A DNA stretch of 64,000 nt from Candidatus Latescibacterota bacterium (GCA_965203805.1 OZ241917.1:2805718-2869717), one strand, 5' to 3'; counted from the stretch's first letter, positions 16,744 to 33,230 are shown. Notes: generated from the sequence alone by a model not told the origin. Translations and numbers: made by a program.

Positions 16744-16860
16744 CGAACGACGGTCCCTAGTCTGCCGGCCAGATCCACAGCCTGAATTTGGAGACCTGCA
16801 AGCTCTCGCAATCGAATCCCCGCGCTATAAAAACAACACATCAGGCATAAAAGTTCGCAC

Positions 16861-17229
16861 TTATAGATTCAGCGTATGACGGAGAGCCGCATCAACTTTG
16901 GCCATTGGAAGCGATCCAATGACGCGGTCAATTGCCGATTCCACAATTGTGGCAAGATTGTCAGCCATAACTACAGAATCTGTGAGTAGACCCGATTGTT
17001 GTCCTTCGGGGGTGGAAAGTAGAATGGCAACACGGCTCGAGTGATTGGCGCGAAACATCCTGCTGGTAATCATCGCCACGACCACTTGGGATAAACCAGT
17101 CTGAAGATTATCAGATTGAACGATTAATCCCGGACGTGGCTTGGCTGTAAGCAAGTTAGAATCCGGAAAGAGCACTAAGACGACGTCACCGCGACTATAG
17201 GTTGGATTTGGCTGCGTCATAGTTGTCAT
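16861..17229 (-). CDS. MazF/PemK-family type II toxin (endoribonuclease)
   Basis: N-terminal YSRGDVVLVLFP...KPRPGLIVQSD pattern typical of PemK/MazF. It overlaps the upstream antitoxin ORF. Confidence 0.8.
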   Translation of the reverse strand: MTTMTQPNPTYSRGDVVLVLFPDSNLLTAKPRPGLIVQSDNLQTGLSQVVVAMITSRMFRANHSSRVAILLSTPEGQQSGLLTDSVVMADNLATIVESAIDRVIGSLPMAKVDAALRHTLNL

Positions 17230-17455
17230 AAATACTCATTTCCGGGCTTTCCCAGTCTTCGGCAAAGGCCGTCAGGCGTTCGCGCAAATCTGCCGCCTGC
17301 GCCTTGTCAATACCGCGTCCTCGTAAATCGATAGAATGTGTTGGCAGAAATGTGACAATGACGGGCGTATCTTCATGTATATCGCTGGGTAATTCCGGAA
17401 GTTCAATCTTACCGCCGCGATACACTCCTTCAATCGTCGTGAGCATGGGGATCAC
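17195..17455 (-). CDS. type II antitoxin, DUF104/AF2212-like N-terminus
   Basis: The TIEGVYRGGKIELPELPSDIHEDTPVIVTFL pattern, an acidic C-terminal tail, and a position immediately upstream of and overlapping the MazF gene. Confidence 0.65.
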   Translation of the reverse strand: MIPMLTTIEGVYRGGKIELPELPSDIHEDTPVIVTFLPTHSIDLRGRGIDKAQAADLRERLTAFAEDWESPEMSIYDNYDAAKSNL

Positions 17456-17582: not shown

Positions 17583-18206
17583 TCAAAACGCTTCGTTTGA
17601 AACCAACTTCTTGTAGAAATGCGCCTCCACAGTCTTCAGGCGTGACTGATAAATCGATTTTTCGGTTGGTCCGGTTGAATCAAACACCCGAACAAAAAAG
17701 CGGCATTTTTTCGACTTAGACCTCTCAAACAAGTTGGATGTTGCCGAAAGAAAAGACGCTTCCGAGATGTCCTGATTCATCACAATATTCTGCAATTTCA
17801 GTGCCCGCCGTTCCTCTCTCCGGTGAGGTAGGCCAGTCTCCCTAACGACCAGTCCCTTAGGGGTGAGATTTATGTCGAAAATGTACTCAATGGATTCATC
17901 GTCCCGAACCCAGCAGGACGGAACTTCGGTCCCTTTACCTGCTGATATGGGGCCCTCATGCTCCCGCGCTATCCGCAGAGCATCCCTTACAGAATCGGGA
18001 TCTGGCGAAAATCCGTGCTCTTGCGCGGCTTCCCGAAATTCTTCAAGCCGTTGCCTTGCCTCTTGGTTTTGCACAACCATCAATTGGTTTTGCACAACCA
18101 TCAATATGAGAAGAAACATCGCAAGAATAAAAATAGATGTGATCAGATCCGTAAAAGACGGCCATACATTGAGTGAGGTATCCCTACGAGTTCGTCTCTT
18201 ATTCAT
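17583..18206 (-). CDS. MotB/ExbD/ZorB-like stator subunit: single TM helix with a conserved Asp, and no recognisable OmpA-type peptidoglycan-binding domain
   Basis: Basic N-terminus followed by VWPSFTDLITSIFILAMFLLIL (compare the MotB and ExbD/TolR TM-Asp motif). The start lies 16 nt after the MotA-like gene. Confidence 0.65.
   Translation of the reverse strand: MNKRRTRRDTSLNVWPSFTDLITSIFILAMFLLILMVVQNQLMVVQNQEARQRLEEFREAAQEHGFSPDPDSVRDALRIAREHEGPISAGKGTEVPSCWVRDDESIEYIFDINLTPKGLVVRETGLPHRREERRALKLQNIVMNQDISEASFLSATSNLFERSKSKKCRFFVRVFDSTGPTEKSIYQSRLKTVEAHFYKKLVSNEAF
18064..18105 (-). repeat. perfect 2 x 21-nt in-frame tandem duplication (MVVQNQL/MVVQNQE)
   Basis: TGGTTTTGCACAACCATCAAT occurs at 18064-18084 and again, identically, at 18085-18105. 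Confidence 0.95.
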
Positions 18207-18222
18207 TGCCAGATACCTACCA

Positions 18223-20052
18223 TCAGAAGAAACGCTTCAGTTTGTCCATAAAACTTAACTTTGGCGGACGGTCATCCCTGCGTTTAAGTGCATCAGCCAT
18301 ATCGCTAAGTGTGCCCTCCATAGCCTTTACAGACGCCACAATCTGTTTTTGCTCGCCGACGACTTTGGGAAGATTACTCAGCGTTTGAATGACACCTTTC
18401 AAATTTCCAACAAGTGTCTGATCCAGACGCTCAATGGCACTTTCCACGTCCGAAAGGCCCGTGCGTAGCGTGCCCACCTTTTCATCCAAGTCGGTGTTGT
18501 CTCTATCGCTAAATTCCTGCTGAAGCTTCAGCAGAGCTTGTTCTGTGGCGTGAATGGCGTCCAGTTGCGCCTTGATGTTGTCAAAAACGGGTTTGTACGT
18601 TGGCTCATCGGGGTTGAGTTTTTGAATCAACTGATATGTTTCCTCCATTGTCAAGCCCAAGGTATTCATTCTTGCATAAAAGCCATCCATCATTTTATCG
18701 ACTGCGGATTTCAACTCTTCCAACGGCTCACTGAGCCTGGTAAAATTAGAAATGTGTTTCACAAAATTCTCGCCCGACTTACGTATATCATCGGCTCCAG
18801 AGTTGAGCGCATCGCAAGCAGTGTTGAGGGTGTCCAAAAGCGGTTTGAGCGCGACTTTGAGATGGTCTGAATGATCTTTGAGTGTCTTTATGAGAAGGTC
18901 CGCTTGCTCTGCCATCAATGCCGAATGTCGATACGAGAAATCCTCAAGTGTGCTGCTCCATTTCTCACTCACTTGCTCGTTGGAGGCACTCGCTTTTTTT
19001 AGCGTATCACTGGCGTCGTTAAGCGTTTTCAAAAAAGGGACAAAGGATGTCGAGACCTTTTCAAAATGCGCTTCGAGTGCTCTTTCTATAGAGTCTGCCT
19101 GACTTGCCATCAATGCGGAATGTCGATGCGAGAAATCCTCAAGTGTGCTGCTCCATTTCTCACTCACTTGCTCGTTGGAGGCACTCGCCTTGTTGAGCAT
19201 GTCACTGGTGTTGTTGAGAGTTTGCAGAAAAGGCCCAAATGAAGCCGATACCTTCTCAAAATGTGCTTCAAGTGTGGTTTTGAGATAGTCTGTCTGATCC
19301 GTCATAAATTCCGAATGTCTATCTGCAAGACCTTTAAAAGCTTCTTGAACCGCCTCTTTCAGATCCACCTCAGGCAAAAACAATCTGAATTTGGGGGCGA
19401 TTTCTTCATTGCAATAGGTTTCTATCTCGGCAATCAATACAAGCCTTTTCTTGCTGAGAATTAGGAAACAGATAGTCAATACAATCATGCAACCTAACCC
19501 AGCGATGCTGGTTATAAAGGCAAACTCCATCCCAGAGAACGACTTGACGATATTTTTTAGCATATCCGGCAGGCTTTGTGTTGCATTGTCTCCGGTATTT
19601 TGGATAATGCTTTCAATCGGTCGGATGACTTGGTAAAGCCCGATAAATGTCCCGAGAAGACCCAATACGATCAAACTCACGCTCGTTGTGCGAATCGCTT
19701 CGTCATTTCCGCAAAGATCTTCCTCTTCTCTCTGTACCATTTCATCAACGACTGGTGGTTTATTTTGCCGAAACCCCGCCCAGAGCAACTTCAGCCATTG
19801 TTGTGTTTTCGGATTCGAAGTAGAATCCGAGGGTGCATTTGCTGCTCTGCTGGCAATAAATCCTTGATGATTTTTTTCCCAACTTTCCAAGTCTGCAAGT
19901 GCATTTCTCGATCTGGTTATCTTGCGCCACATTTTTGCTAAAAACCAAAGGCCCAAGCAAAAAAATATGCCCATAACGAGCAACCAAATTACCAAAAAAT
20001 TCGATGGATTCGACCCAAAAAATAAATCTGACATATTGGTAAATTTCCTCAT
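18223..20052 (-). CDS. MotA/TolQ/ExbB-family proton-channel protein with a helical C-terminal tail of about 400 aa (ZorA-like)
   Basis: Three TM segments. Family hallmark motifs are VLGLLGTFIGL (compare GLLGTVxG) and AFITSIAGLGCMIV (compare AxxTTxxGL). The long helical tail has about 65-aa repeats. ATGA start/stop overlap with the upstream gene. Confidence 0.8.
   Translation of the reverse strand: MRKFTNMSDLFFGSNPSNFLVIWLLVMGIFFCLGLWFLAKMWRKITRSRNALADLESWEKNHQGFIASRAANAPSDSTSNPKTQQWLKLLWAGFRQNKPPVVDEMVQREEEDLCGNDEAIRTTSVSLIVLGLLGTFIGLYQVIRPIESIIQNTGDNATQSLPDMLKNIVKSFSGMEFAFITSIAGLGCMIVLTICFLILSKKRLVLIAEIETYCNEEIAPKFRLFLPEVDLKEAVQEAFKGLADRHSEFMTDQTDYLKTTLEAHFEKVSASFGPFLQTLNNTSDMLNKASASNEQVSEKWSSTLEDFSHRHSALMASQADSIERALEAHFEKVSTSFVPFLKTLNDASDTLKKASASNEQVSEKWSSTLEDFSYRHSALMAEQADLLIKTLKDHSDHLKVALKPLLDTLNTACDALNSGADDIRKSGENFVKHISNFTRLSEPLEELKSAVDKMMDGFYARMNTLGLTMEETYQLIQKLNPDEPTYKPVFDNIKAQLDAIHATEQALLKLQQEFSDRDNTDLDEKVGTLRTGLSDVESAIERLDQTLVGNLKGVIQTLSNLPKVVGEQKQIVASVKAMEGTLSDMADALKRRDDRPPKLSFMDKLKRFF
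18700..19330 (-). repeat. three tandem units of about 195 nt (65 aa) inside the ZorA-like tail
   Basis: An 84-nt core at 18911-18994 recurs at 19106-19189 with only 2 mismatches. The protein units are ..LEAHFEKVS(A/T)SF.PFL(Q/K)TLN..SD.L.KASASNEQVSEKWSSTLEDFS.., and the third unit is degenerate. Confidence 0.85.
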
Positions 20053-20948
20053 CCAGCAATGATCACTTTTGCTTTGAGATCTATCTCATCGGTTTGTGAA
20101 TTCTTAAGCCCATGCGCCAAGCACCTTACAATTCGGTCCCGGGGTTGTGTCCCGCTTGTATCCTGACTGGCAATTTGAAATCGGCGCCTGTCAAAAGAAT
20201 CCCCTGGACGCGCTCCAATTATCTCTACTTCATCCCCTCCCAAATCCATCATCAGATCAAAAACACGCTGCGCGTCCTCCTGTCGATTCTGTGTTACTCG
20301 ACTGTCGATTTCGGGTAAGAAGTATCGAATCATCTGTGCGGGACGGGTACGGCGTAGAAGGCTTTCTATTGAAGACGCATTGAAAACTTCCTCACCTATA
20401 AGAGCACCTTTGAGCCAAAGAACCGGATCATCTGAATCATCTTGCATTTCGCGCAACGTCAACAGATCCTGTATTTGTTTTAATGGCTTCTCAACCTCCC
20501 GATCAACATATACAGCGAAAGATGCACGGTCATCCTGCGACATCGCGCTCTTTATTTCCTCTAAAGCCGACCGAAACTGCCTCAAATACGTTACACGGTC
20601 TTTCAATTCGCGCCAATTTTCTTCATCCAAATCATCTGAAAAGCTACCTACACTTTCTCTTATTCTTCTCTTCAACAATTTTATCCATTCAATATCTTCT
20701 TTATTCTGACCATTTTCCAAATCTTTGATGTTTTCTACTTCTGTACGGAGATTTGAAACGTGGGTCGCATAAACCTGTACCCGGTCCGACACTATAGCCT
20801 TCACGTCTTCACTTGCTTCTGATCGGGATTTTAAAACCTGCTTTCTTAACCATATAACAGACAAGAGTGCTATTAGAGAAATAATGAATGAAATGACATT
20901 CAACAATGAATCAAATTCCTTAAACATCAAGCTACCTCCAAGAAGCAT
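20049..20948 (-). CDS. membrane-anchored coiled-coil protein with a GrpE-like C-terminal domain (putative nucleotide-exchange factor for the adjacent Hsp70)
   Basis: N-terminal TM segment (LLNVISFIISLIALLSVIWL) and a long charged helical region. The C-terminus EVEIIGARPGDSFDRRRFQIASQD...IVRCLAHGLKN...LKAKVIIAG follows the GrpE pattern G..FDP..H.A....V...GY....lRpA.V.V. TAATG stop/start overlap with the Hsp70 gene (20946-20950). The longer ORF reaches 20990. Confidence 0.55.
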   Translation of the reverse strand: MLLGGSLMFKEFDSLLNVISFIISLIALLSVIWLRKQVLKSRSEASEDVKAIVSDRVQVYATHVSNLRTEVENIKDLENGQNKEDIEWIKLLKRRIRESVGSFSDDLDEENWRELKDRVTYLRQFRSALEEIKSAMSQDDRASFAVYVDREVEKPLKQIQDLLTLREMQDDSDDPVLWLKGALIGEEVFNASSIESLLRRTRPAQMIRYFLPEIDSRVTQNRQEDAQRVFDLMMDLGGDEVEIIGARPGDSFDRRRFQIASQDTSGTQPRDRIVRCLAHGLKNSQTDEIDLKAKVIIAG

Positions 20949-23900
20949 TATGTGTAGGAAAAGTTCATACACCTTCGATGTGCTTCCCATACGTATTCAA
21001 AATCACTGCCATCTTTTTCATTGCCAACCCGATAGTTATACAAAAGGTCCGCTTTCCCCGCTACATCACATTTCAGTTCCAGGCAGTAAGTCCAGAATTG
21101 TGCGTTTTGAAATACATCATCGTCTTTTGGCACAGTTAGATTGGCAACGACCCTATTTTCAGCCTGGGTTACTCTTGTGTTTAAGTCCCACCCAAAAAAC
21201 TCAACAAGCGCGATTCGGCTACTTGCCCTTTCTATTTCTATGATGAGGCCTGGGTTTTCCGGAGTGATGGTCGTATCTGGCTCCAACGGCGTCCAGCGAT
21301 CAAAAACGAGTACAAAATGGGTAAATGCACGCATGCAGATGGGATAATTTAATTTTCGTATCCCTTTTGGAGGCGAATAATAGAGATCGCTCAAACTCCT
21401 ACCATACTCAACAGCACCCAAAGCCACGCTTTTTTTCAGTTTTTCTGGTTCGAAAATGATCTCTTTCGCCTGTACTCTTTCTTTCGCAACCGTTTTTACG
21501 AGCGGGAGACGAGAGGTGTTTCCTTCCAAGATCAGATAATCTAACTGAGTATCGGCGATCTGATTCTTGTTGAACAGATAGTGCTGCATCTGATTGAGCT
21601 TATCAAAGCCTTTTTTCAGCTCCTCGCGGACAGAATTATAGATGTCGTTAATAGCTAAAGGTGCCATATCTGGAAGTAAGTTGTCATTCAAAAAACGCAG
21701 CGTGCCTTCTATACTCAGAGTGGCATTCTCAGGACTTTTACTCTTGAGAGAAACGCGTGGCCAATTATCGGGGATATTGGAGGATTCGATCAGATCTAAA
21801 ATGCCGTTCTCTCCACCATGAAGATGTTCAGCATAATCTTCGGGTTCCAGAGCCTCTCTAAGAAAAGACGTTATTCTATTGTTCTCCTTTATTGTTTCTG
21901 CTAATCCATAGAGTTGGGAGAAATTCTCCTCTTCGATTTTTTCCAGTGGTCTCAGTGCCTTATCCAATGTATCGGGAAAAGGGAATTGGGTTCTGTAAAC
22001 CTCAGGGACCATTTGAAAATACAGATATTGCGCGATTTTGAAAGACAGCAAGTCGCCACCCAGCGAAACATCTCCGTCAGAGGCGAGAATTTCAATGTCG
22101 GGTCGTCCATATTCTTGAGGGGTTAATCGTACAATTGAGATGTCCGTGGTCCCTCCTCCACAATCGAAGACGCCATAAACAATATCTCGACCAAGGTCCT
22201 GCTTGATAGCGATATCCAGTGCATAAGCAAGGGCGATGGCCTCCGGTTCACTAATCTCAAGAATAGGTTTGAGATTCATTCCCTGTGTCGCCCACGCAAT
22301 GGCTTTTCTCATTGACTCCTTTTGGCGATTAAAAACTGCGGGATAAGTAAAAACGGCTTCTGAGGGCACATAACCCGTATTTTCTTGGAAACTCTCCAAT
22401 AAGAAACGGATGTAAAGCCCTACCTTTTCAATCGCACCAACTTCAATATATCTATTGCCCTGGGTATAAATTCTTCCATTTAAGCTGAGGCTCCCTGTAC
22501 CCAAATCATTATAAATAATCTGTTCGTGGGGCGTTCTCAAGGTGCGCTTAAAACCCCAAGAAATTGATGAGATATGTTCAGAATGAAACCGCAGGTCTTT
22601 AAGTGTATGACCAAATTTGACAAGGGCTTCTTTTTCCTTCAAAACAGTCCGCCTTACGTCAGCCCCCGGCTCTTGTAAAACTTCCAAAAGATCATCGGGG
22701 TTTTTAATCGCCAAAAACTGAAACACAGTGGGTATTTCCGAGCCCATTTCCGAGACATCTTCGCCAAGGTCTATTTCCAGTAGTTCCTCTTTGTCTTGGG
22801 CGTCCTGATCTATATATGCGATACACGAGTTCGTGGTACCGAAATCTACTGCAATAGGAGAATCCAGAAGCTGAGGAGGTCGGATTTGAACGGGAAGAGA
22901 GATGGATTGATGGAACGTTTCGCCTTCGCCAACGGTAGCTCCGTGAATGACCAGAGTTGCCTTATCAGTGGTGTTCTCCTCAACTGTCGGAAGTGTGTCT
23001 TGATTGAGAATCAGGTCAATTGGAGAACTCGAATTATCTATAAGAATTGGCTCCTGATCTGTAATTTGAATTCTTGTATTGAGCCAAGGCTGATTTGATT
23101 CAACCCGAGTAATTCGAAGTGGTGGACCACTTAAGTGCTTTACCGTTACGGTAAAGCTCATCTTTTTGTTTCCTCCAGATACAAGTGCCTGCTCGTTGAC
23201 AAATTGACGGCTGAACTTCCACTCAATCTTTGGCTTATTAACATAGCGCAACAACAACCTGAATGTTATCTCGCCCAAACTGTCAAAAGGGAAATTTAAA
23301 ATAGCAGGGCAAGTCTCTTCAAAGTCCCGTCGCCGAGTGAGACTAAATCTAAATGGATGCTCAGGAGAAAGTTTATCGGGAAATTCCTGGTCCGGCGGTA
23401 AGTCAAAATGACCTTTGCCTTCAGACAGGAAAGGCGCGGCCTGAAGCCTCAGCGGAGAATCGTGATGAACCGTAAGGGTGACCCGTCCGTCGTCAGGGTC
23501 TATTGCGCAGGGCTGATATTCGACTGTGTCGTGTTTAAACTCGTGCTCATCTGGTGAAACAAGCCAAATCTCCGGTGCTTTCTCGCATCGAACAAAAAAA
23601 ACAACAGGTTTAATTGACGAAAGTGATGAAAGCAATTCTAATCGCCCGATATTGCGCTCATGTGCATTATGCGAACAACGGAGTTCTACACTTTCATCGG
23701 TATCAAGTCTATACGGTAGATCAATATCTCCGTGCCGTTGGGTGATTCCGAAGCCCTGAGCCTTTAATTCACGAATTTCTATGGGATTGACGCCTTCGTT
23801 TTTAACCTTTAGCGTGATGGGTATACCAGAAAAAATCGTCCAGGGAGCACCCCTAAGGTCTTCGTCCGGATCTGGAGTGACTGTTATTCTAACTAACTGA

Positions 23901-23998
23901 TATGCACACCCCCCGCAGAAGATATCTTTGGGTGAAATTTGCCAGTGGCATCTGGGGCATACCGGTGTGTTGCCTATTGAGTTCATTTTGAAACGCAT
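20948..23998 (-). CDS. Zn-ribbon + beta-sandwich region + Hsp70/actin-fold ATPase fusion protein
   Basis: CPRCHWQISPKDIFCGGCAYQL at residues 14-35. About 350 aa of beta-rich sequence follow. Hsp70 motifs then appear: IAVDFGTTNSCIAY (phosphate-1, about aa 382), VFDCGGGTTDISIV (phosphate-2) and LILEGNTSRLPLV (adenosine). Confidence 0.85.
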   Translation of the reverse strand: MRFKMNSIGNTPVCPRCHWQISPKDIFCGGCAYQLVRITVTPDPDEDLRGAPWTIFSGIPITLKVKNEGVNPIEIRELKAQGFGITQRHGDIDLPYRLDTDESVELRCSHNAHERNIGRLELLSSLSSIKPVVFFVRCEKAPEIWLVSPDEHEFKHDTVEYQPCAIDPDDGRVTLTVHHDSPLRLQAAPFLSEGKGHFDLPPDQEFPDKLSPEHPFRFSLTRRRDFEETCPAILNFPFDSLGEITFRLLLRYVNKPKIEWKFSRQFVNEQALVSGGNKKMSFTVTVKHLSGPPLRITRVESNQPWLNTRIQITDQEPILIDNSSSPIDLILNQDTLPTVEENTTDKATLVIHGATVGEGETFHQSISLPVQIRPPQLLDSPIAVDFGTTNSCIAYIDQDAQDKEELLEIDLGEDVSEMGSEIPTVFQFLAIKNPDDLLEVLQEPGADVRRTVLKEKEALVKFGHTLKDLRFHSEHISSISWGFKRTLRTPHEQIIYNDLGTGSLSLNGRIYTQGNRYIEVGAIEKVGLYIRFLLESFQENTGYVPSEAVFTYPAVFNRQKESMRKAIAWATQGMNLKPILEISEPEAIALAYALDIAIKQDLGRDIVYGVFDCGGGTTDISIVRLTPQEYGRPDIEILASDGDVSLGGDLLSFKIAQYLYFQMVPEVYRTQFPFPDTLDKALRPLEKIEEENFSQLYGLAETIKENNRITSFLREALEPEDYAEHLHGGENGILDLIESSNIPDNWPRVSLKSKSPENATLSIEGTLRFLNDNLLPDMAPLAINDIYNSVREELKKGFDKLNQMQHYLFNKNQIADTQLDYLILEGNTSRLPLVKTVAKERVQAKEIIFEPEKLKKSVALGAVEYGRSLSDLYYSPPKGIRKLNYPICMRAFTHFVLVFDRWTPLEPDTTITPENPGLIIEIERASSRIALVEFFGWDLNTRVTQAENRVVANLTVPKDDDVFQNAQFWTYCLELKCDVAGKADLLYNYRVGNEKDGSDFEYVWEAHRRCMNFSYT

Positions 23999-24008
23999 CC
24001 CAAAAAAA

Positions 24009-27000
24009 TCACTTCATCACATAGATATCGTCTTTGCAGAACTTATCGCGATACGCCAATGGAGTAGCAAATGTATCGATTCCATCCCTCATTTTTTCCA
24101 ATTTTTCATTTAAGGCAGTTTCGTCCAAATTGAACTGCCTGAGCGTCTGATCGTAATCGCTCTGATATGACCTGTCCAGCAAAATTCGAAAGGTATGATC
24201 TGCGGAGATATCCTCGTTCCCCACGCGAATCTGAGTACTTGGAAATACCTTGTTGAGCAGCCAGCTCTTTAATGCGAGCCGCTGAATAAAACACTCGTGG
24301 CGATTTTCTCTACGCCACTGCTCTTCCAATGTGCGGGTCGCAATATCTAGACGGTCTTTTGCGTCTGATTTGCTACCTATGATTAACCGTGCGCGCTCGA
24401 GATTGTGACCGTATCTATCTAAATGCTCAATACCTCTTAGCTTAAACGGACGGCAGAACTCTCTCTGAATATTATCGTATTTGATAATGCTCATAATTAT
24501 CCCATTGATCAGGGAACTCTGTGCATTAATCAGTGATCGAACTTCCCCATCATTTTGGGGTGGCAGGATGTCGGCAAATTCCCAATAATCTTTGATCATG
24601 TGACGACGGTACACGTTGATAGGATCTGCTCCGGTATTTGCCCGGTAATCACGATCAAGATCAAAAATATTTCCAATAGATAAAATGGGAAATGCCATCC
24701 ATTGGTTTACAAAAACAACGGCGTCATTTCTGTGTTCTGTTGCTTGATATGATTGTCCTTTGTGCGGAGCAACAAGATGGTTGACTTGATTGACCCAGAC
24801 ATCGTCCTTAACGCCAATGCGATTATCGGAAATATCTGCCAGACCGGGCAATGCCAGACGTGTATCAGAAACACGAGGTTCAGCTCTCTGGCTTCGCTTG
24901 ACAATTTCATCCCGCTCCTGGTCGGCGAAACGATTGCGTAACTCCTCAGTGGCGTGAATATCTGTTTTGAAATCCCCAAAAAGTTGAAATGTGTATTCAT
25001 CAATAGTCCTGAGAACGGCATCCCAATTGCGAGGGGAATGACCTCGCCTGGCAGACCGGTTGAATATCTCTCTGGTGCCTGTGTTTATGGTGTCGATATC
25101 TTCACCCTGTGCCGTAGCAATATTGCCAAACAGGATTTTGGCTTCTTCAGAACGGAAATATTTCTCCAGCCCTCCTCGACATAGACGCGGCAAATCAGTT
25201 TCTGGCCATCTTCTTGCCTGTCGGAGATGGTCTTGAATTTCTTCAGGATAATTTAGATCAAGTGTGAGGTTCAGGTTTCTTTCTCCCGTTACGCGCTGAA
25301 TATATGCCTGATGGATCTCCAAGAAACCTCTGGACATTTCCTGCAGGTTCTCGCGAAAACCTTGAACCTGTGCTTGCAGACCGCTCACTCTTACACTAAC
25401 CTTACCATCATCTCCGGTAACCTCTGCACGACTCCCCAGCAAGCGGATGATTTGTCCCACCAAATCGACGAGAAATCGGGCAGCATCCTTGCGAAAACGC
25501 TTCCGCACCCAATCGGAGAGTTCCCGCTGAGTGGCGTCAACCTGATTTCGAAGGTCTCGATAGATCTTTTGGGCATCCTCGCGAAAAGCCCTGGCTTTTT
25601 CGTCTTCGTAGTGACGCAACGCTATCTTTTTTGTTCGCCAGGCCAGAGGGAGATCTCGCGCTTCTTTCAACCGCTGTTCAAAGAGACGAAAGTCTCCTGA
25701 AAACTCAATATTTATAGGGGATATTTGGGGGCCTTCCATTTGCTCGTTAGCCAGCCTATTCAAATCTCGAAGCACGGATGCCAATGCCTCTTTGCTGTGT
25801 TCCAAGAAGCTTTCGACATAGTTGGGACCGCACTCTAAAGGATTGCAAAGCATCCCGATACAATAATCTTTTACTTTGTCTTCGAGTTCTGGAAGCAATC
25901 GATCTGCATTGTCGAGGATCTGTTTAATATCGTCCCCTTTAATAGTGCCTTCCTCTTTGAGCTTTTCAGATACCTTCTGTCGTATTTCAAGTGTTAGGCC
26001 TTCAACTCTCGACCTGGCTTCTGCCACCTGTCGTTCAAGGATCGCAACATCCTGAGCCTCGGGTGCTTTATCGATGCTTTGCAATAGATCGGTAAAAACC
26101 GGTTTCAGAGTCTCATTTATTGCATGATCCGCCAGCGTAAAGTCTGCACCGGGACGGTTTAAGGCACGGTTGATGAGTCTATCTGTGGTGAGCTCGATCT
26201 GTTCCAAATGGGGTCGTACATCGGCTGTAGAAAACCCAGGAGGAATTTTATTATCCGCCGCGATTATAAAATCCACCAGGTACTGTGCGAATTTATTCGA
26301 TGCAGCATTGGCAAGACGAGGTTGGTTGATCTCCATTTGAGAGAGACCAAATGAGGCATATCGGCATGGGAAGTACTGAACATAGTTGTCGCTCTTATAT
26401 CTCACCATTTGCTGCAAAAATTGCTCCATATTGGAGCGGGCACTGCGCTTGTCCATCGCGAAACGAGTCTGTTCGAAGTCGAGCAACAGAAACTCAGCGA
26501 TCATCTGAAACACATCGGCAAAGTCTGCAATGCGGACCCCGGCAAGATTGCTATCATCAAGCAAATAGACAGTTGAGAATGGGGGTGCTGGAACGCTGTG
26601 TTCACTGCCATCCCACTCGAATTTGTGTCGAGTAAAATGGTCGTCGCCTGTACTCTGTGCATCAAAGTATGGCTGCATGTAGTGTTCGAGTTCTTTGAGG
26701 GCGGCAAAACCATTAGCCCGTGTAGTTTGGCGTGCTCCCCCCACAATCTCATCAAAGACAGAAGGTAGTACCAAATGGGCTGTGCAGACCGCATTTGGAA
26801 AAAGATATCGACACAAAAATCCCATGTCGATGAAAGAGCCTGAACCAGTTCCTCCTGCGACGGATGTGACGATTACGATTTCCAGATCGTTGGAATCGGC
26901 ATCATAGTTGGGAAATCTCCGCACCATTTCTGTCCTTGCCTCTGCGCTTTGAACGCGGTTGACCTTTCTTTCTATTTCTTCTCGAAGTTTATCATAGTGA

Positions 27001-27440
27001 TGAAAAAAGGCTAATCGGCCACAAGGTCGAATCTGCCCAGCTCCTTGTGTGATCGCTGTGGAGGGAAGGGAGTCAAGAGCTTCTGGAAACCACGACCAGA
27101 TATGAGGATACATACCTTTGTTATTGCGATATCCTTCCAATTCTTGAGGCATAACTCTACCATCTACTTTTTCACGGGCAGAAAAGTCTATTCTCCGATC
27201 CAGAAGGTCTGTTTCATTCTCCATAATGTCAATATTTCGAATGTCGGTATCAAACCAGAGGTACTCCATCAGAGGCAAACCAATCATCCTGTATTTTTCG
27301 TAAAACATTCGACGGAGACGCCGCAGAACTTCCTTACCCGTGCCTCCAAGACCAATCAGAACAGTTGGCCTGATGCTGATCCGACCTTCTCCTCGCTGTG
27401 CTCCACCAAGGCGTTCTGCCGTAGCATTTGTTTCCATCAT
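24009..27440 (-). CDS. giant tubulin/FtsZ-superfamily GTPase (Tubulin_2-like) with a helical C-terminal extension of about 900 aa
   Basis: GLGGTGKEV (aa 30-38, T1-like), TQGAGQIRPCG (aa 131-141, T3-like) and the tubulin signature VTSVAGGTGSGSFIDMG (aa 191-207, T4 GGGTGSG-like). Confidence 0.8.
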   Translation of the reverse strand: MMETNATAERLGGAQRGEGRISIRPTVLIGLGGTGKEVLRRLRRMFYEKYRMIGLPLMEYLWFDTDIRNIDIMENETDLLDRRIDFSAREKVDGRVMPQELEGYRNNKGMYPHIWSWFPEALDSLPSTAITQGAGQIRPCGRLAFFHHYDKLREEIERKVNRVQSAEARTEMVRRFPNYDADSNDLEIVIVTSVAGGTGSGSFIDMGFLCRYLFPNAVCTAHLVLPSVFDEIVGGARQTTRANGFAALKELEHYMQPYFDAQSTGDDHFTRHKFEWDGSEHSVPAPPFSTVYLLDDSNLAGVRIADFADVFQMIAEFLLLDFEQTRFAMDKRSARSNMEQFLQQMVRYKSDNYVQYFPCRYASFGLSQMEINQPRLANAASNKFAQYLVDFIIAADNKIPPGFSTADVRPHLEQIELTTDRLINRALNRPGADFTLADHAINETLKPVFTDLLQSIDKAPEAQDVAILERQVAEARSRVEGLTLEIRQKVSEKLKEEGTIKGDDIKQILDNADRLLPELEDKVKDYCIGMLCNPLECGPNYVESFLEHSKEALASVLRDLNRLANEQMEGPQISPINIEFSGDFRLFEQRLKEARDLPLAWRTKKIALRHYEDEKARAFREDAQKIYRDLRNQVDATQRELSDWVRKRFRKDAARFLVDLVGQIIRLLGSRAEVTGDDGKVSVRVSGLQAQVQGFRENLQEMSRGFLEIHQAYIQRVTGERNLNLTLDLNYPEEIQDHLRQARRWPETDLPRLCRGGLEKYFRSEEAKILFGNIATAQGEDIDTINTGTREIFNRSARRGHSPRNWDAVLRTIDEYTFQLFGDFKTDIHATEELRNRFADQERDEIVKRSQRAEPRVSDTRLALPGLADISDNRIGVKDDVWVNQVNHLVAPHKGQSYQATEHRNDAVVFVNQWMAFPILSIGNIFDLDRDYRANTGADPINVYRRHMIKDYWEFADILPPQNDGEVRSLINAQSSLINGIIMSIIKYDNIQREFCRPFKLRGIEHLDRYGHNLERARLIIGSKSDAKDRLDIATRTLEEQWRRENRHECFIQRLALKSWLLNKVFPSTQIRVGNEDISADHTFRILLDRSYQSDYDQTLRQFNLDETALNEKLEKMRDGIDTFATPLAYRDKFCKDDIYVMK

Positions 27441-27468
27441 GGTTCTACTCCCAAGGCAATTGGTTATC

Positions 27469-28497
27469 TCAATTTTTCTGAGTCTGAATGCGTGTCATAA
27501 AAAACGTGATTACAAAGGCGACAACACCAACAAAGACACACGACCAGAACAAGGCACTTTCATAAGTGGTCTGCCAACCCAGCAGATAATCCAAATATCC
27601 ACTGAGATAAAAGATGATCGTCAACGCACTCCCCACAACTGTAATCACAGCCGAACGCGCAAAAGCATGCGCGGGATGTCGCTCCCGATTTTTTATTTGG
27701 ACCGTAAAAATCACATATGTGGAGAATAAGTAAATTCCGATAATGATGATCGCCAGCAAAGCCCACATTAGAGAACCAGAAAAAATAGACGGTCTGGATG
27801 CCGACATATAAGCAGGAGGCTCCATACCTGGAACAACCTTGTCCTCATAATCCGATTTGCCCAATAAGGGTCTGGCTTCATCTATTGCCACAGCGTAATT
27901 GAGATTCTGGGCACGTCTGGCGGTGTCCTGTTTGGTAAATGTTACAATGCCTACTACCTCTCCTTGTTCATTGAACAACGGCCCTCCGCTATTACCCGGT
28001 GAGACGGGTGCCGTGGTCTGGACAACCTTGTATCCATCCTGATTTCGTATCTGCGAAATGATGCCATCGGTGACAGAAAACTCCTCGCCTAAGGGATTTC
28101 CGATCACGACCACAGGGTCGCCGGGTTTTACTCCTGCCACTGTCCCAAGACGCGCCTGGTGAAGGGTCTGTCCACCCAGATCGGCCTTCACAAGCGCGAG
28201 ATCTTTGTGCTCATCTTTTGCCACAATTGCCACGATAGGCATCCATTCGGCTCCCTGTACGCGCACCCATCCTTCTCGAATACCCTTGATCACATGCCAG
28301 TTGGTCAGAAAATAGCCTTTTGCACCATCAATAGATACTCCCGACCCCTGACTCTTTGCGCCATCTGTTTCAATTACCACGAAGGCGACAGCAGGACCTT
28401 CTTCCTCAGCAATCCGCGAAGCAGTGTTATTGCTCGTCCCCCCACAACCCCACAGGACCAATAAAAAACCTATACGCGCAAGATGTGATGTCATCAC
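27469..28497 (-). CDS. trypsin-like (S1C/Trypsin_2) serine protease, predicted lipoprotein with a C-terminal 3-TM anchor
   Basis: Lipobox-like LLVLWGC. Catalytic triad contexts are TNWHV (His), KDLALV (Asp) and GNSGGPLF (Ser). Three hydrophobic helices occupy the last 110 aa or so. Confidence 0.85.
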   Translation of the reverse strand: MMTSHLARIGFLLVLWGCGGTSNNTASRIAEEEGPAVAFVVIETDGAKSQGSGVSIDGAKGYFLTNWHVIKGIREGWVRVQGAEWMPIVAIVAKDEHKDLALVKADLGGQTLHQARLGTVAGVKPGDPVVVIGNPLGEEFSVTDGIISQIRNQDGYKVVQTTAPVSPGNSGGPLFNEQGEVVGIVTFTKQDTARRAQNLNYAVAIDEARPLLGKSDYEDKVVPGMEPPAYMSASRPSIFSGSLMWALLAIIIIGIYLFSTYVIFTVQIKNRERHPAHAFARSAVITVVGSALTIIFYLSGYLDYLLGWQTTYESALFWSCVFVGVVAFVITFFMTRIQTQKN

Positions 28498-28509
28498 ATA
28501 CTCTCCTAT

Positions 28510-30204
28510 TCAAAATCGTGCAGCCAAACGTTCAACCTTCATCGACATATCGCCCTTCTTTAATATCAGAGCTTTATAAGGCTCTAACAAAAGCTTGATA
28601 TTTCTTGGCTGTTCTTCTACCTCCGACTCCAAGTCTTTCGACATATCATTACCCAAAGTATCTTCCACTATGACGTCCTCATCTGGACGGAAAGCGAACT
28701 GAAAAATAGCATCTCGCTTGATGTGTCCCAAACTGATTTCGTCGCCTGCGGCATTTGTTATTTTCAAATCAACCTGCTTGCTCGCGGGCCCCAATCGAAG
28801 CCGTTCCGTGTGTTCCTGAACTTGATTCAGGCTGTCTGTAACCCGATATTTCAACGGATAGTACATTATCCAAGCGATCATAGCAATCAAGATTATCAAG
28901 CCAACAAGGAGTGCGACCCAGGCGATCCAGGGACCTTTAAGGGGTGTGATTTGCAATTCGCCAGAAATCGTACCACCTATCGGCACGACAGTTGCAGGCT
29001 GTTGATGGAGGTACTGGATAATATCAGTAGGCGTATAGATGCGGTTCAACACACCCGGCTGGTCGGTGAAGTACCGCGCTTTGTAAGCCTCTGTCATGCG
29101 AAACGAATTAGGCGGAATTTCTATAGACACAGCGAAATAATAGTCCGCTGGCACAGGGCCAATACGGACGAGGCTCAAGTAGTCCCAGAAATTTCGATGG
29201 TCTGGATAAAAAGGGCCAAAGTGTACCAGGCAGGTATAGACAGAGGTATGTTGGGTCGCAGACATAAGTGTATCTACGAGTGCTGGGGGGCTTACCCGAC
29301 CGTAGTGATACGATCTACGGCCTAACAAAATGCGATCCTGCACCTTGCGGGCGTATACCTGCGGAGGTTGGACTTTAAACTCCGATCCTGCAGGTTCAAT
29401 GTTAATGTGGCTGAGTCGTGATTGTAGTGTAAAATTAAAACGCAGTCGGCTTTTTTCACTAATTTCCGCAACGATTGGTCTGATCAACCCGGGAGCTAAA
29501 ATAATGGTATCATCAATCGGCTTCATCACCATCGGCTCCATTCCCTCGTTCTGCAAAACTGTGACGAGATGCTCAAATTGGGAGCGGAATTGTGGCTGCG
29601 TAAGCAACAGATAAAGGACAAAACCTTTCATTCCCCGGTAGTAGAGCCGACGATCAGGACGGATCCGGATTTCGGAATTGGGGTTCATGCTTTGCAGTTC
29701 GCTATGTCCTTTATGTGGGACGGGATTAGACAGAAGCCCTTCAAACATCCGCTTAAGAGGGATAGCCCGCAAAACTTTGATCGTATCGCGGTTAAAACAA
29801 GCATAAAGTGCTCTGGCGTCGAGATCGCTGGCTGCCTGAACATTGTCCGTGAGCATCATCACAATCGGCGCCCTGTCATATCCCGTATTAAATGCCGCCT
29901 CAAGATTGGTATATCCACCCCAGGTCTTTGTCTTTTGGAAACTCTCGGCACCCTGCCAGGCTACTGTATCTGGCCGGCTTGAAACAAAAAAAACTGTCTC
30001 TGAGGGAATGTCCTTCTGGTCGCACGCCTTTTTCAGGATATTGACCAGAATATTGAGTTCTTTACTGTTGTCGAAACCAGTCATCGAACCAGAGCCGTCA
30101 ATCTGTATGCTCACTCTTTGGGCATATACCGACGATGCTTGTGCGAACAATATGCCCAATATGATAATAAAATAGGCCACTGCCTTAGGCCTCTCTATCC
30201 CCAT
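28510..30204 (-). CDS. secreted vWA-domain protein with a C-proximal TM helix and a cytoplasmic tail of about 105 aa
   Basis: Signal peptide ending VYA-Q. MIDAS DGSGSM, GGYTNLEAAF and IVMMLTDN. TM segment PWIAWVALLVGLIILIAMIAWIMYY (nt about 28855-28935). 20-nt overlap with the upstream gene. Confidence 0.8.
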   Translation of the reverse strand: MGIERPKAVAYFIIILGILFAQASSVYAQRVSIQIDGSGSMTGFDNSKELNILVNILKKACDQKDIPSETVFFVSSRPDTVAWQGAESFQKTKTWGGYTNLEAAFNTGYDRAPIVMMLTDNVQAASDLDARALYACFNRDTIKVLRAIPLKRMFEGLLSNPVPHKGHSELQSMNPNSEIRIRPDRRLYYRGMKGFVLYLLLTQPQFRSQFEHLVTVLQNEGMEPMVMKPIDDTIILAPGLIRPIVAEISEKSRLRFNFTLQSRLSHINIEPAGSEFKVQPPQVYARKVQDRILLGRRSYHYGRVSPPALVDTLMSATQHTSVYTCLVHFGPFYPDHRNFWDYLSLVRIGPVPADYYFAVSIEIPPNSFRMTEAYKARYFTDQPGVLNRIYTPTDIIQYLHQQPATVVPIGGTISGELQITPLKGPWIAWVALLVGLIILIAMIAWIMYYPLKYRVTDSLNQVQEHTERLRLGPASKQVDLKITNAAGDEISLGHIKRDAIFQFAFRPDEDVIVEDTLGNDMSKDLESEVEEQPRNIKLLLEPYKALILKKGDMSMKVERLAARF

Positions 30205-31432
30205 TGAGAGGATAACAGTACAGCATTGTGGAATTATCTTCTCTCATCAAGACATATACACTATGCCCAAAACCTGCTGGTGCGGTCACAGCAGTCAGAC
30301 CAGTGTTGAACGACCAGAAGCGCGGACGAGAAATGCCATTGTTGCGGTCAAAATGGAATAGTGACACGAGGGGCAACCCATTAGGATCTTCATTATCTTG
30401 AAAACCTATGAGAACATTGCCAAAAGAGCTACACATGTCCGTCTGACTCATGAAGGCTGGATACGCTCTATCAACACTACTATCCAGGGGATTCACTAAA
30501 TTTACGCCTTCAGATGTGACCACAACGAACCAATTCTGATCGTCAATGTCTATGGAGTGAAGGGCTGTCGCACGGAGATCAGGTATGGTATCTGTAATGG
30601 GTTCGAGATTATCCTGAGTAAAAGAAATTATCCTGACATCACCATTCTCTTGTCTGGACGCTAAGCGAAGCAGGCCAGTGCAGTTTGATCCTACGCAATG
30701 GCTCTTGCCCCCTTCTTCAAATCCTTCATAAGGCTCCGAGACACCATCATCTGTCAACAAGGCCATGTTATACTCACCTACGAGCGCCACCATAAAATCT
30801 CCGCCTTGCAGTGGAACCAGCGTTTCAATATCAAATGGCGTGTCTATTTCTCGAGGTTTGTAAGCAGTTTCCTCTCCTTCTACCCAAAAATTATTGATGG
30901 ATGGTGTATCTCCTATTCTTATTCGACGATTTGCTTCGTCAAGTACGAGCAACCGATTTTTGAACAACCAAAATTTCTGTACATTCTCGGCACATGGCCA
31001 CCAATTCGTGCTCATAGCCATATAGTCGCTGCAGAGCGCAGACACCGGAAAAACATGGAGATTACCGTGAGTGTTCAGGACATATATCCAACACTGGTCA
31101 AAGCGAACTTCGGCGATTCCCTCGGTGATGTGTGAGAGAAAAAAAGGGGTGCTTTCGTGGAGAGGGTTGGGAAAAACGACCATATTTCCCGTAGCTTTCT
31201 CAACAACCAATGCAACGCCGAATATGTTCAAGAGCAAATCAGGTTTTCCTCTAAGCGGAACTATGTGTTCCTCGGGCGGGCGACTTTCCGTGGGCGCTAC
31301 GGGTGCTGCAACTAGAGTCGCTTTATCCGGGAGACTGCCACATTGAGAGCAGAAATTGGCGAGTGGCGGGTTGGTTTCTGCACCACAGGCGTTACATTTC
31401 CACGTGTTTGTCGTCCAATTCCATTTGACCAT
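30185..31432 (-). CDS. N-terminal Zn-ribbon protein with a beta-rich (propeller-like) body; first gene of the island operon
   Basis: CNACGAETNPPLANFCSQCG at residues 13-32, no TM segment, and beta-strand-rich sequence throughout the remainder. Confidence 0.7.
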   Translation of the reverse strand: MVKWNWTTNTWKCNACGAETNPPLANFCSQCGSLPDKATLVAAPVAPTESRPPEEHIVPLRGKPDLLLNIFGVALVVEKATGNMVVFPNPLHESTPFFLSHITEGIAEVRFDQCWIYVLNTHGNLHVFPVSALCSDYMAMSTNWWPCAENVQKFWLFKNRLLVLDEANRRIRIGDTPSINNFWVEGEETAYKPREIDTPFDIETLVPLQGGDFMVALVGEYNMALLTDDGVSEPYEGFEEGGKSHCVGSNCTGLLRLASRQENGDVRIISFTQDNLEPITDTIPDLRATALHSIDIDDQNWFVVVTSEGVNLVNPLDSSVDRAYPAFMSQTDMCSSFGNVLIGFQDNEDPNGLPLVSLFHFDRNNGISRPRFWSFNTGLTAVTAPAGFGHSVYVLMREDNSTMLYCYPLNGDREA

Positions 31433-31842: not shown

Positions 31843-32934
31843 TCAAGGCTCAACCGTTACTTTGATGGACCGCTCACCGGCCGCGACGAGGTCGAAGCCA
31901 TCCTGGAATCTCTCGAGCGGCAGGCGATGGGTCACGATGCGGTCCATCGGCAGGAGGCCCTTCCGGATCATATCGATCGCGATGGGATAACATCCGGGCC
32001 CCAGGTGGGCGCCGTGGATGTTGAGTTCCTTGGTGTCGCCGATGATCGTCCAGTCCGTCGTTACGGGCTCCCGCATCACGCTGAATTCGACGAAAGTGCC
32101 GAGTTTGCAGATCATGTGCAGGCCCTGTTCCACGGCGGCCGGGTGCCCGGTCGCTTCGATGTAGACGTCGCATCCGTATCCATCGGTGACGTGGCGCACT
32201 TCGCGGACGACGTCTGTTTTTCCCGGATTGAAGACCAGGTCCGCGCCGCAGGCTCTCGCCACGTCCAGGCGGTCGTCGTTAAGGTCCAGGGCGACGAGCA
32301 GCCGGGGGTTCTTGAGGCGGGCGGCGGCGACCATTCCCAGCCCCAGTGGTCCCGCGCCGGCGATGACCACGGTGTGGTCCAGTTCGACTTCGCCGCGTTG
32401 GACCGCGTGAACGGCGCAAGCCAGGGGCTCGATGTACACCGCGTGGTGGGCCGGAATCCCCGTGGGGACTCTATAATTGAGCGCGTCGGCGGGGAAACGC
32501 ATGAATTCGGCCATCGCGCCGAAGGTGTTCTGCCGGAAGCCGTAAATGTCGTGACGCATGCACATCCAGTACTGGCCGCGCCGGCAATAGCGGCACGCGT
32601 GGCACGGGACGATCTGTTCGGAAATCGCCGTGTCGCCAATGGCCAGTCCGTATTTCTCTCCGGCGCCCGGACCGAGCATAACCACCTCGCCGATGAATTC
32701 ATGGCCCGGGACGACGGGGGCCTGGCAGTACCCCTTCCGGTGTTCGTCTCCCCAGAAGAGCGGTGCGCCGAGATAGCATTTGAGATCGCTGGCGCAGATC
32801 CCCGCGGACCTGACGCGGACAACGACCTCCTCCGGTCCCGGAAGCGGCACGGGGCGTTCTTCCAGCCGGTAGTCTTCGGGTCCATGGCAGACAACCGCAG
32901 GCATGGTATCCGGAAGTCCGGTTTGCGTCGTCAA
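31843..32934 (-). CDS. zinc-dependent medium-chain dehydrogenase/reductase (polyol/threonine dehydrogenase-like)
   Basis: GICASDL, PGHEFIGEV, the structural-Zn cluster CHACRYCRRGQYWMC, and the Rossmann motif VVIAGAGPLGLG. Confidence 0.85.
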   Translation of the reverse strand: MTTQTGLPDTMPAVVCHGPEDYRLEERPVPLPGPEEVVVRVRSAGICASDLKCYLGAPLFWGDEHRKGYCQAPVVPGHEFIGEVVMLGPGAGEKYGLAIGDTAISEQIVPCHACRYCRRGQYWMCMRHDIYGFRQNTFGAMAEFMRFPADALNYRVPTGIPAHHAVYIEPLACAVHAVQRGEVELDHTVVIAGAGPLGLGMVAAARLKNPRLLVALDLNDDRLDVARACGADLVFNPGKTDVVREVRHVTDGYGCDVYIEATGHPAAVEQGLHMICKLGTFVEFSVMREPVTTDWTIIGDTKELNIHGAHLGPGCYPIAIDMIRKGLLPMDRIVTHRLPLERFQDGFDLVAAGERSIKVTVEP

Positions 32935-33230
32935 CGGCGAACTCCTCCGAAGCCCGGCCAGGCTTTGAATTTCCTGCCTGCGGAGAACACGGACCCGTCC
33001 CCGACGGGCAGACGTCCGCGGGTTTCTTTACAATACCAGACAGTCGAATCCGTGCTTCGACAACAATCGTGCGTCTGCCGGAGACACCAAGATAGGACGA
33101 AACAACACAGATGGCAACCGAATCGAATGGATTGGTCGCCAGGGTTTTTCCTTGTGTCCGCCTTATCCGCTTATTTACATTGTGGAGCAAATTTCCGTGC
33201 GCTTGAAGACCTGATTCAGAGGAGAGATTG

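Follow-up and report, generated by a model that had tools for sequence, protein, structure and literature searches.

What does a very long tubulin-like GTPase do in an operon that also encodes a stator and an Hsp70-like ATPase? This question is raised by a 64,000-nucleotide (nt) stretch of the genome of a Candidatus Latescibacterota bacterium (GCA_965203805.1 OZ241917.1:2805718-2869717), which is referred to here as the window. The gene lies at 24009..27440 on the minus strand, and it is an open reading frame (ORF) of 1143 codons and a stop. Its product is a member of the FtsZl1 family (Pfam Tubulin_2), and it is the fourth gene of an eight-gene cassette. The best explanation for the cassette is that it encodes an envelope-linked conflict or defence machine driven by nucleoside triphosphates (NTP), in which FtsZl1 serves as a GTP-dependent scaffold or switch. 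This explanation is considered reasonably probable.

The 1143-amino acid (aa) protein contains three motifs that can be connected to a tubulin-type nucleotide pocket. These are the T1 motif GLGGTGKE (aa 30-37, nt 27330-27353), the T3-like motif GAGQIRPCG (aa 133-141, nt 27018-27044), and the T4 motif AGGTGSGS (aa 195-202, nt 26835-26858, with the GGTGSG core at 26838-26855). AGGTGSG (aa 195-201) fits the tubulin signature [SAG]GGTG[SA]G. The initial annotation of this DNA, made from the sequence alone, had reported an ORF of this length with the three motifs in order, and both the ORF coordinates and the motif positions are confirmed. It had also named profiles, among them Tubulin_2 and Tubulin, for checking its assignment to the tubulin/FtsZ superfamily. 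Tubulin_2 (PF13809) matched strongly and well above what chance glycine runs could give, with an E of 1.7e-66 and 225.4 bits against a cut-off of 27, and aa 27-389 were placed on profile positions 1-355 of 356. Tubulin (PF00091) reached 19.1 bits, below its cut-off of 33, and matched around the T4 loop only. No Pfam match to FtsZ_C or Tubulin_C was found in the protein. When a 65-sequence family profile was compared with all PDB chains, only coiled-coil noise (apolipoprotein and designed helical bundles) was returned, and no tubulin or FtsZ. The superfamily assignment holds nonetheless, through the Tubulin_2 match together with matches to the folds of CetZ, gamma-tubulin, and FtsZ that are described below.

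The family to which the protein belongs was named FtsZ-like 1 by Makarova and Koonin in 2010, with a founding member of 1051 aa (PMC2875224), and a 2023 survey equates the FtsZl1 group with Pfam Tubulin_2 (PMC9871819). In the published architecture, an FtsZ-like GTP-binding domain at the N-terminus, with GGTGSG, is followed by a coiled coil at approximately aa 445-780 and a C-terminal domain, in proteins of about 1050-1150 aa, and neither T6-H7 nor the FtsZ C-terminal domain could be identified (PMC2875224). The protein in the window is homologous to this family over its full length and has the same three-part architecture and the same unalignable T6/T7. Membership in FtsZl1/Tubulin_2 is well supported, and every defining feature that can be tested is present. 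The single-protein finding is not new, as the architecture was published in 2010. Such proteins are labeled by the NCBI Prokaryotic Genome Annotation Pipeline as 'tubulin-like doman-containing protein'.

The family is large. A word-indexed search returned 1320 homologues, nearly all of 1050-1250 aa. When residues 1-400 of FtsZl1 were used as the query of an exhaustive phmmer search, 4781 clusters (50% identity) reached E <= 1e-3, and 1912 of them reached E <= 1e-10. Of the 150 phmmer matches listed, by far the most have the tubulin-like domain at the N-terminus of a protein of about 1100 aa. More than 500 species-level genomes in the scan, from many phyla, possess a member. The length of the protein is the family norm because its homologues are mostly about 1100 aa. 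The length and helical extension that had at first seemed unusual are common to most of the approximately 4,800 family clusters.

Full-length alignments were made with 14 and with 64 homologues. The T1 GLGGTG (aa 30-35) and the T4 AGGTGSG are invariant in 65 homologues, which reach down to 21% identity. The individual residues that are invariant in this set include G32, G33, and G35, then G133, A134, and R138, then G196, G197, T198, G199, and G201, and also P226 and N243. Outside of the nucleotide pocket, there is little or no variation at W117, E250, L251, K331, N337, and G365. In the closer relatives R332 does not vary either, and E316 is another conserved polar residue.

A structure was predicted with AlphaFold2 on the 65-sequence alignment, with a mean predicted local distance difference test (pLDDT) of 88.2 and a predicted template-modelling score (pTM) of 0.78. 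Conserved columns, hhalign, and the secondary structure of the model delimit a tubulin-like module at approximately aa 20-395 (26256..27383, minus strand). Its loops are T1 (aa 30-35), the T3-like GAGQIRPxGR (aa 133-142), T4 (aa 195-201), and a T5-like LPSVF (aa 225-229). GAGQIRPxGR resembles the FtsZ T3 loop GAGANPEVGR, and LPSVFD resembles the T5 loop KPFNFEG. With hhalign, aa 187-231 were placed on positions 97-139 of E. coli FtsZ (S4-T4-H4-S5-T5), a weak match of low probability, which serves for motif mapping only. In the model, aa 21-393 are alpha/beta. A 30-residue helix similar to H7 (aa 226-255) carries the invariant N243 and is followed by a beta-sheet subdomain with strands at aa 271-370 and two helices.

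The model was searched against the PDB with Foldseek, and the top matches were CetZ 3zid (E 6e-5), gamma-tubulin, and the FtsZ structures 1w5a, 2r6r, and 4dxd. Almost all of the top 50 matches are CetZ, FtsZ, tubulin, or gamma-tubulin chains, with E from 6e-5 to 1.6e-3 and a Foldseek probability of 1.00. The alignments are 350-390 columns long and span nearly the whole of the 305-360-aa FtsZ and CetZ chains at 11-17% identity. The template-modelling scores, normalised to the FtsZ and CetZ targets, are moderate at 0.44-0.49. FtsZl1 is genuinely related to tubulin and FtsZ, although it is highly divergent. The Foldseek result excludes the case that had been named beforehand as overturning the assignment, in which the fold would be an unrelated one of the P-loop or Rossmann type. 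Because the alignments cover the FtsZ and CetZ chains almost in full, aa 256-395 probably contain a structural counterpart of the second subdomain of tubulin and FtsZ. The initial annotation had recognised no FtsZ or tubulin C-terminal domain. This stands at the level of sequence, and the structural comparison suggests the second-subdomain counterpart. The tubulin-like part had also been placed within about 210 aa, which is too short, as the module extends over about 375 aa.

The nucleotide-binding domain fold, and apparently the second subdomain, are shared with FtsZ, CetZ, TubZ, tubulin, and gamma-tubulin, as are T1, T3, T4, and a T5-like PxxF. Unlike the canonical proteins, FtsZl1 has inserts between T1 and T3 and a 750-aa extension. 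It also appears to lack S6/H6, so that one long helix (aa 226-255) follows S5. No conserved T7 loop of the NxDxxD/E type is visible in it, and FtsZl1 occurs outside a context of division or plasmid partition. In the superfamily, an acidic residue of T7 completes the GTPase site of the adjacent subunit. Residues 256-270, where T7 would be expected after the H7-like helix, are variable among homologues and of low confidence in the model, and the conserved polar residues E316, K331, and N337 (with R332 in the closer relatives) are found beyond this segment. Because no conserved catalytic loop of the T7 type is recognisable, it is suggested that GTP hydrolysis by FtsZl1, if any, is triggered differently from that in FtsZ and tubulin.

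The same region bears on whether FtsZl1 forms filaments at all. It could instead be a GTP switch that does not polymerise, in which a monomer or a coiled-coil dimer regulates the protease or the Hsp70-like ATPase of the cassette. Such a switch would be compatible with any function of the cassette. The variable, low-confidence segment with no visible T7-like loop would fit it, and so would the model, which is compact with the helical region folded back. Makarova and Koonin likewise noted that T6-H7 cannot be aligned and that FtsZl1 filaments might not form (PMC2875224). On the other side, the whole two-subdomain fold of tubulin and FtsZ has apparently been kept, and the invariant and nearly invariant residues outside of the pocket are compatible with conserved subunit interfaces. 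To our knowledge, every characterised member of the superfamily polymerises, save for some cases of gamma-tubulin and Misato, and this also speaks against a switch without filaments. A switch of this kind is somewhat unlikely.

The remainder of the protein is of three kinds in the model. Almost all of aa 405-714 consists of long helices, the longest of them at aa 601-668, and these fold back on the protein and do not extend from it. This agrees with the helical region that had been predicted at about aa 450-720. An alpha region is found at aa 731-852, and aa 870-1143 form a mixed alpha/beta, family-specific C-terminal domain. The earlier description of a remainder of more than 900 aa, much of it coiled coil, does not hold for these last 280 or so aa. 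The extreme C-terminal domain has been described as mostly alpha-helical in the family (PMC2875224), in contrast to the mixed alpha/beta model. When the C-terminal 429 aa were modelled alone (pLDDT 78.7), no structural match was found in the PDB (best E 0.9), and therefore no fold assignment is possible.

The eight genes of the cassette are at 17583..31432 on the minus strand in a low-GC (guanine plus cytosine) island, and they form an operon in which neighbours overlap or are separated by gaps of at most 28 nt. Five of the eight products are membrane-anchored. The stator and the Hsp70 claimed in the initial annotation are real neighbours, as MotA/ZorA-like, MotB/ZorB-like, and Hsp70-like genes are all present. 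Its further claim, that the role lies outside of cell division, is the same inference that was made by the discoverers of the family (PMC2875224). In addition to FtsZl1, the cassette has two further energy-using modules, namely the Hsp70-like/GrpE-like pair and the stator.

Gene 2 (28510..30204, minus strand) encodes a divergent, 564-aa vWA-like protein. It has a signal or anchor segment at aa 8-26, a transmembrane (TM) helix at aa 429-447, and a cytoplasmic tail. Motifs similar to a metal ion-dependent adhesion site (DGSGSM, T99, and LTDN) were found, and D-x-S-G-S-M, T, and TDN are kept in the homologues. There was no Pfam family match for gene 2 or for 10 diverse homologues. Among the best PDB profile matches are the ITIH1 and TRAP vWA domains, with E of only 0.03-0.3. 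Judging from the motifs and these weak matches, gene 2 appears to encode a periplasm-facing, divergent vWA protein. The gene 2 family comprises widespread proteins of about 500-650 aa that are encoded directly upstream of FtsZl1 and that no Pfam model detects.

Gene 3 (27469..28497, minus strand) encodes a 342-aa serine protease of the HtrA/DegP type (Pfam Trypsin_2, E 1.5e-29). It has a lipoprotein-type N-terminus and TM helices at aa 246-264, 278-296, and 316-334, and its match to the NCBIfam Do-family model is below the cut-off. In the Latescibacterota cassettes, this protease fills a slot that is otherwise taken by another protein. Between the vWA-like gene and FtsZl1 of many phyla there is a small multi-TM protein of about 120-170 aa, at about 9.4-10.0 kb in each of loci L013, L015, L036, L039, L044, L046, L061, L067, L072, and L083. 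The C-terminal TM part of gene 3 was compared with this small protein as a possible homologue, and no similarity was detectable.

Gene 5 (20948..23998, minus strand) encodes a protein of 1016 aa that has a zinc ribbon at the N-terminus. It also has a beta-rich region, and at approximately aa 380-850 an Hsp70-like nucleotide-binding domain (Pfam HSP70, E 3e-14). The DnaK motifs of this domain that were checked are kept: IAVDFGTTNS, VFDCGGGTTDISIV, GDVSLGG, and LILEGNTSRLP. Gene 6 (20049..20990, minus strand) encodes a GrpE-like exchange factor of 313 aa, a coiled-coil protein that is membrane-anchored by a TM helix at aa 28-46. The gene 6 family was aligned with the C-terminal beta domain of E. 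coli GrpE by hhalign at E 4.5e-5, and genes at the same position in L049 and L071, from other phyla, are above the Pfam GrpE cut-off. The gene 6 protein of the window itself had no Pfam GrpE match.

Genes 7 and 8 encode the putative stator. Gene 7 (18223..20052, minus strand) encodes a 609-aa ZorA-like protein of the MotA/ExbB family with a coiled-coil tail of about 390 aa. It matches the PADLOC ZorA models with E from 2e-13 to 1e-8, and Pfam MotA_ExbB with 22.7 bits (cut-off 22.9). The tail contains an in-frame tandem duplication of 195 bp (65 aa) at 18910-19319, with about two copies at 82-87% identity. Such a duplication is a possible source of variation in tail length. Gene 8 (17583..18206, minus strand) encodes a 207-aa MotB/ZorB-like protein with a TM helix that contains Asp20 (SFTDL), and its match to PADLOC ZorB (E 3e-5) is confined to the N-terminus. 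Gene 1 (30185..31432, minus strand) encodes a cytoplasmic, 415-aa protein with an N-terminal zinc ribbon, supported by weak zinc-ribbon Pfam matches, and a beta-rich body. It is present in all of the Latescibacterota cassettes, and CxxC...CxxC is conserved in the orthologue alignment.

The GC content is 0.43-0.49 inside the cassette and 0.60-0.64 in its flanks, in a genome with a GC content of about 62%. Because its GC content is far below that of the flanks, the cassette was acquired horizontally. Downstream it adjoins a gene for a MazF/PemK-family toxin (122 aa, Pfam E 2e-14) with an overlapping, upstream ORF of 86 aa, together at 16861-17455 on the minus strand. The 86-aa ORF has no Pfam match and is likely the antitoxin. 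This pair is not found in the syntenic relative, L001. DNA homology to L001, which is 88% identical, stops at 18085, which falls within a perfect tandem duplication of 21 bp (18063-18105) that encodes LMVVQNQ two times, and the 1.4 kb beyond this point, including the toxin-antitoxin pair, is unrelated to L001. Because the homology of gene 8 ends inside the duplication, it is suggested that the 3' end of this gene was replaced by recombination.

Rfam and tRNA scans of the window returned nothing, and no tRNA-type integration site was found for the island. In the interval from the LamG-like gene to the toxin gene, a stretch of 72 nt (16766-16837) shares 93% identity with L004 20357-20427, which is downstream of the L004 cassette. 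The stretch has no Rfam match, and L004, another Latescibacterota genome, otherwise shares only the cassette with the window. The flanks also include genes for a 698-aa, repeat-rich LamG-type protein (14647-16743, minus strand), a zinc alcohol dehydrogenase (31843-32934, minus strand), and an 1137-aa CPBP/Rce1-like membrane protease (33228-36641, plus strand). These were named from the Pfam families of the syntenic genes in L001, and they are unrelated to the cassette.

Loci L001-L010 also contain the whole cassette. The 88%-identical cassette of L001/L002 is located at the same site on the chromosome; a DDE transposase adjoins it, and an rve-type insertion sequence (IS) lies within it. Seven species-level genomes of Candidatus Latescibacterota possess the whole cassette at 44-74% identity, one case being at 46%, and this points to Latescibacterota as the origin of the window too. 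Neighbourhoods were counted by iterative local searches over 83 FtsZl1 loci. In 57 of the 83, a homologue of gene 2 is directly upstream of FtsZl1. Hsp70-like genes occur in 32 loci, ZorA-like genes in 16, and trypsin-like proteases in 15, and the Hsp70-like gene is accompanied by GrpE. When 88 neighbours in the operons of 29 diverse loci were classified with Pfam, HSP70 was found in seven ORFs, trypsin and GrpE in three each, and OmpA in two, along with zinc ribbons, and most of the neighbours have no Pfam family. Three cyanobacteria have ZorA/ZorB-like genes directly after FtsZl1. A metagenome-assembled genome of Cloacimonadota (L046) has, in order, an uncharacterised gene, a vWA-like gene, a small TM protein, FtsZl1, an Hsp70-like gene, coiled-coil genes, MotA, and an OmpA-type MotB, and this cassette is analogous to that of Latescibacterota. 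On two megaplasmids, FtsZl1 adjoins genes for vWA, caspase, CHAT, S8 peptidase, OmpA, DUF4384, or PEGA proteins. A role in phage or plasmid segregation of the PhuZ/TubZ type was also considered and is not supported, as no phage record carries FtsZl1 and the plasmid matches are confined to eight megaplasmids.

These neighbourhoods can be read in another manner. FtsZl1 filaments, together with the vWA, OmpA-type, and membrane proteins, could mould or pinch the cytoplasmic membrane. The cassette would then encode a machine for membrane remodelling or vesicle biogenesis, with a housekeeping or developmental function and with proton-motive energy given by the stator. Remodelling was proposed from neighbourhoods with vWA, OmpA, and transmembrane proteins (PMC2875224), and the window has the same vWA-gene and OmpA-type-gene neighbourhood as that family. 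The five membrane-anchored proteins of the cassette and the size of the family, with its many phyla, would agree with such a role, as would the lack of a recognisable toxic effector by Pfam and PADLOC. However, the cassette is an island of low GC that has toxin-antitoxin genes and IS elements as neighbours, and it contains no ESCRT, dynamin, or lipid-handling genes. The distribution is patchy and the partners are highly variable (caspase, CHAT, and trypsin peptidases), a pattern that characterises conflict systems more than housekeeping machinery. Membrane remodelling is therefore held to be unlikely.

That one operon encodes a stator together with a protein of cytoskeletal type and a vWA protein of the periplasm could also suggest an apparatus for surface motility or adhesion. 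The stator would move along a tubulin-like track, or be positioned by it, and would drive a periplasmic or exposed vWA adhesin. In the gliding machinery of Myxococcus (Agl-Glt), a TolQR-like motor works with an MreB track and the vWA adhesin CglB, and the cassette can be compared with it by analogy. A second analogue is provided by vWA proteins that are syntenic with TolQ/TolR-like motors, for which force transduction has been proposed (PMC12204202). Several features disagree with this. The cassette is a single small unit with no outer-membrane components, and it is horizontally acquired and variably present. The ZorB-like protein of the window has no peptidoglycan anchor, and gene 2 has a C-terminal TM helix, which is not the TolA/TonB-like or TolR-like topology described (PMC12204202). 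Motility or adhesion is thus a very improbable function.

Two groups of described systems are closer to the cassette. As in Zorya, a protein of the MotA family that ends in a long coiled-coil tail is paired with a MotB-like protein that has a TM Asp, and the two are encoded at one end of a multi-gene accessory island (PMC11946911, PMC11890865). In place of the Zorya partners, the cassette has the tubulin-like GTPase, the Hsp70-like/GrpE-like pair, the vWA-like protein, and the protease. Gene 7 scored 41 bits with NCBIfam antiphage_ZorA_1, for which the cut-off is 190, and was below the cut-offs of the other ZorA models as well, and none of the eight cassette proteins had a PADLOC match to ZorC, D, E, F, or G. 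The cassette is not Zorya, because its ZorA and ZorB are below the cut-offs and ZorC-ZorG are absent. Tubulin, Hsp70, or vWA partners are not mentioned in the Zorya papers (PMC11946911, PMC11890865). The literature searches found no link of Zorya or ZorA to any of the three, and the results for ZorA with tubulin were mostly author names.

The second group comprises the DO-GTPase/GAP1-N2 systems (Kaur et al., 2020, PMC7159879), for which NTP-dependent multimeric assembly has been predicted. The features in common are a tubulin-superfamily protein with a coiled-coil or alpha-helical C-terminus, an extracytoplasmic vWA protein, Hsp70 with GrpE, zinc ribbons, trypsin-like peptidases, and proximity to the membrane. 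In those systems, the tubulin and Hsp70/GrpE themes do not overlap and are found mostly in Firmicutes and Actinobacteria, whereas in the cassette they are combined and joined to a stator pair, in Latescibacterota and Cloacimonadota. The constant core of those systems is a DO-GTPase, a P-loop GTPase of the TRAFAC class, together with a GAP1 protein. No Pfam match to either of these families, which Pfam is expected to cover, was found in the cassette. Walker-A-like strings occur only in genes 1 and 3, where they are not conserved or lie within the protease. As neither component was detected, the cassette does not count as a DO-GTPase/GAP1 system. Gene 1, with its zinc ribbon and the string GFEEGGKS, was considered as a DO-GTPase and rejected, as GFEEGGKS is not conserved in the orthologues and there is no conserved P-loop.

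The explanation as a conflict or defence machine follows the logic of both groups. Tubulin+vWA and HSP70+GrpE modules have already been assigned to conflict systems that are predicted to depend on NTP (Kaur et al., 2020, PMC7159879), and Zorya provides the model of a motor with a signalling tail. We infer that the machine could operate as follows. The periplasmic vWA protein and the protease, together with the proton-driven stator and its cytoplasmic coiled-coil tail, would signal an event at the envelope to the cytoplasm. FtsZl1 would bind GTP through its tubulin module and self-assemble or switch conformation, and its helical stalk of about 300 aa and its C-terminal domain would serve as a docking platform. 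The Hsp70-like/GrpE-like pair would load, remodel, or reset the FtsZl1 assembly. Because of this proposed GTP-driven assembly or switching, FtsZl1 would be a scaffold or switch and not a division protein. Points in favour of a role in conflict are the low-GC island, the adjoining MazF/PemK pair, the IS elements in L001, the ZorA matches of gene 7, and the caspase, CHAT, S8, and vWA neighbours on megaplasmids.

A number of observations weigh against this explanation. There was no match of the PADLOC models to FtsZl1, the Hsp70-like protein, or the vWA-like protein, and no nuclease or other classic toxic effector was recognised in the cassette by Pfam or PADLOC. The ZorA and ZorB matches of genes 7 and 8 are far below the NCBIfam cut-offs, and ZorC-G are missing. 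Outside Latescibacterota, a stator accompanies FtsZl1 in only six of 73 loci, which makes it a minority arrangement. FtsZl1 is rare on plasmids (eight of 72,556 records, all of them megaplasmids), and none was found in phage records. Polymerisation of FtsZl1 is unproven, and no conserved T7-like acidic loop was seen after its H7-like helix in the alignment or the model. The literature searched contained no experimental data on members of the family, and Makarova and Koonin themselves favoured membrane remodelling for FtsZl1 (PMC2875224). Gene 8 of the window has only the N-terminal TM segment in common with its orthologues and has no OmpA-like peptidoglycan-binding domain, while the orthologues in L001, L003, L046, and L079 have OmpA. 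Because gene 8 lost this domain, the copy of the cassette in the window may be impaired.

A more specific form of the conflict explanation can be put forward tentatively. The cassette could be an undescribed immune system for envelope surveillance, in which a ZorAB-like, proton-driven 5:2 motor is coupled to a tubulin-superfamily GTPase and not to a nuclease. The GTP-dependent assembly would then be the effector or signalling step, and it would be managed by the Hsp70-like/GrpE-like pair and the membrane protease. This form is possible, and it is put forward as a doubtful proposal.

The composition of the cassette may be undescribed. A tubulin-like GTPase together with Hsp70/GrpE and a stator is mentioned neither in the paper that defined the family, in which partners such as Hsp70, GrpE, MotA/MotB, and proteases do not appear (PMC2875224), nor in those on Zorya (PMC11946911, PMC11890865). 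FtsZl1/Tubulin_2 is among the largest branches of tubulin/FtsZ for which no assigned function was found in the literature. The value of the locus is the cassette itself, a compact, conserved, and horizontally mobile operon that joins an uncharacterised tubulin branch with a proton motor and with a chaperone pair of its own. It physically links FtsZl1 to the stator, the Hsp70-like/GrpE-like pair, the periplasmic vWA protein, and the membrane protease. If the cassette can be expressed in a tractable host, it allows one to ask whether a tubulin fold with no recognisable T7 loop can polymerise or hydrolyse GTP, what the partner of a ZorA-like tail is when there is no Zorya effector, and whether tubulin relatives act in immunity or in membrane remodelling. 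If the cassette is indeed an immune system, it would provide a bacterial 'cytoskeletal' immune effector and the first assigned function for FtsZl1.

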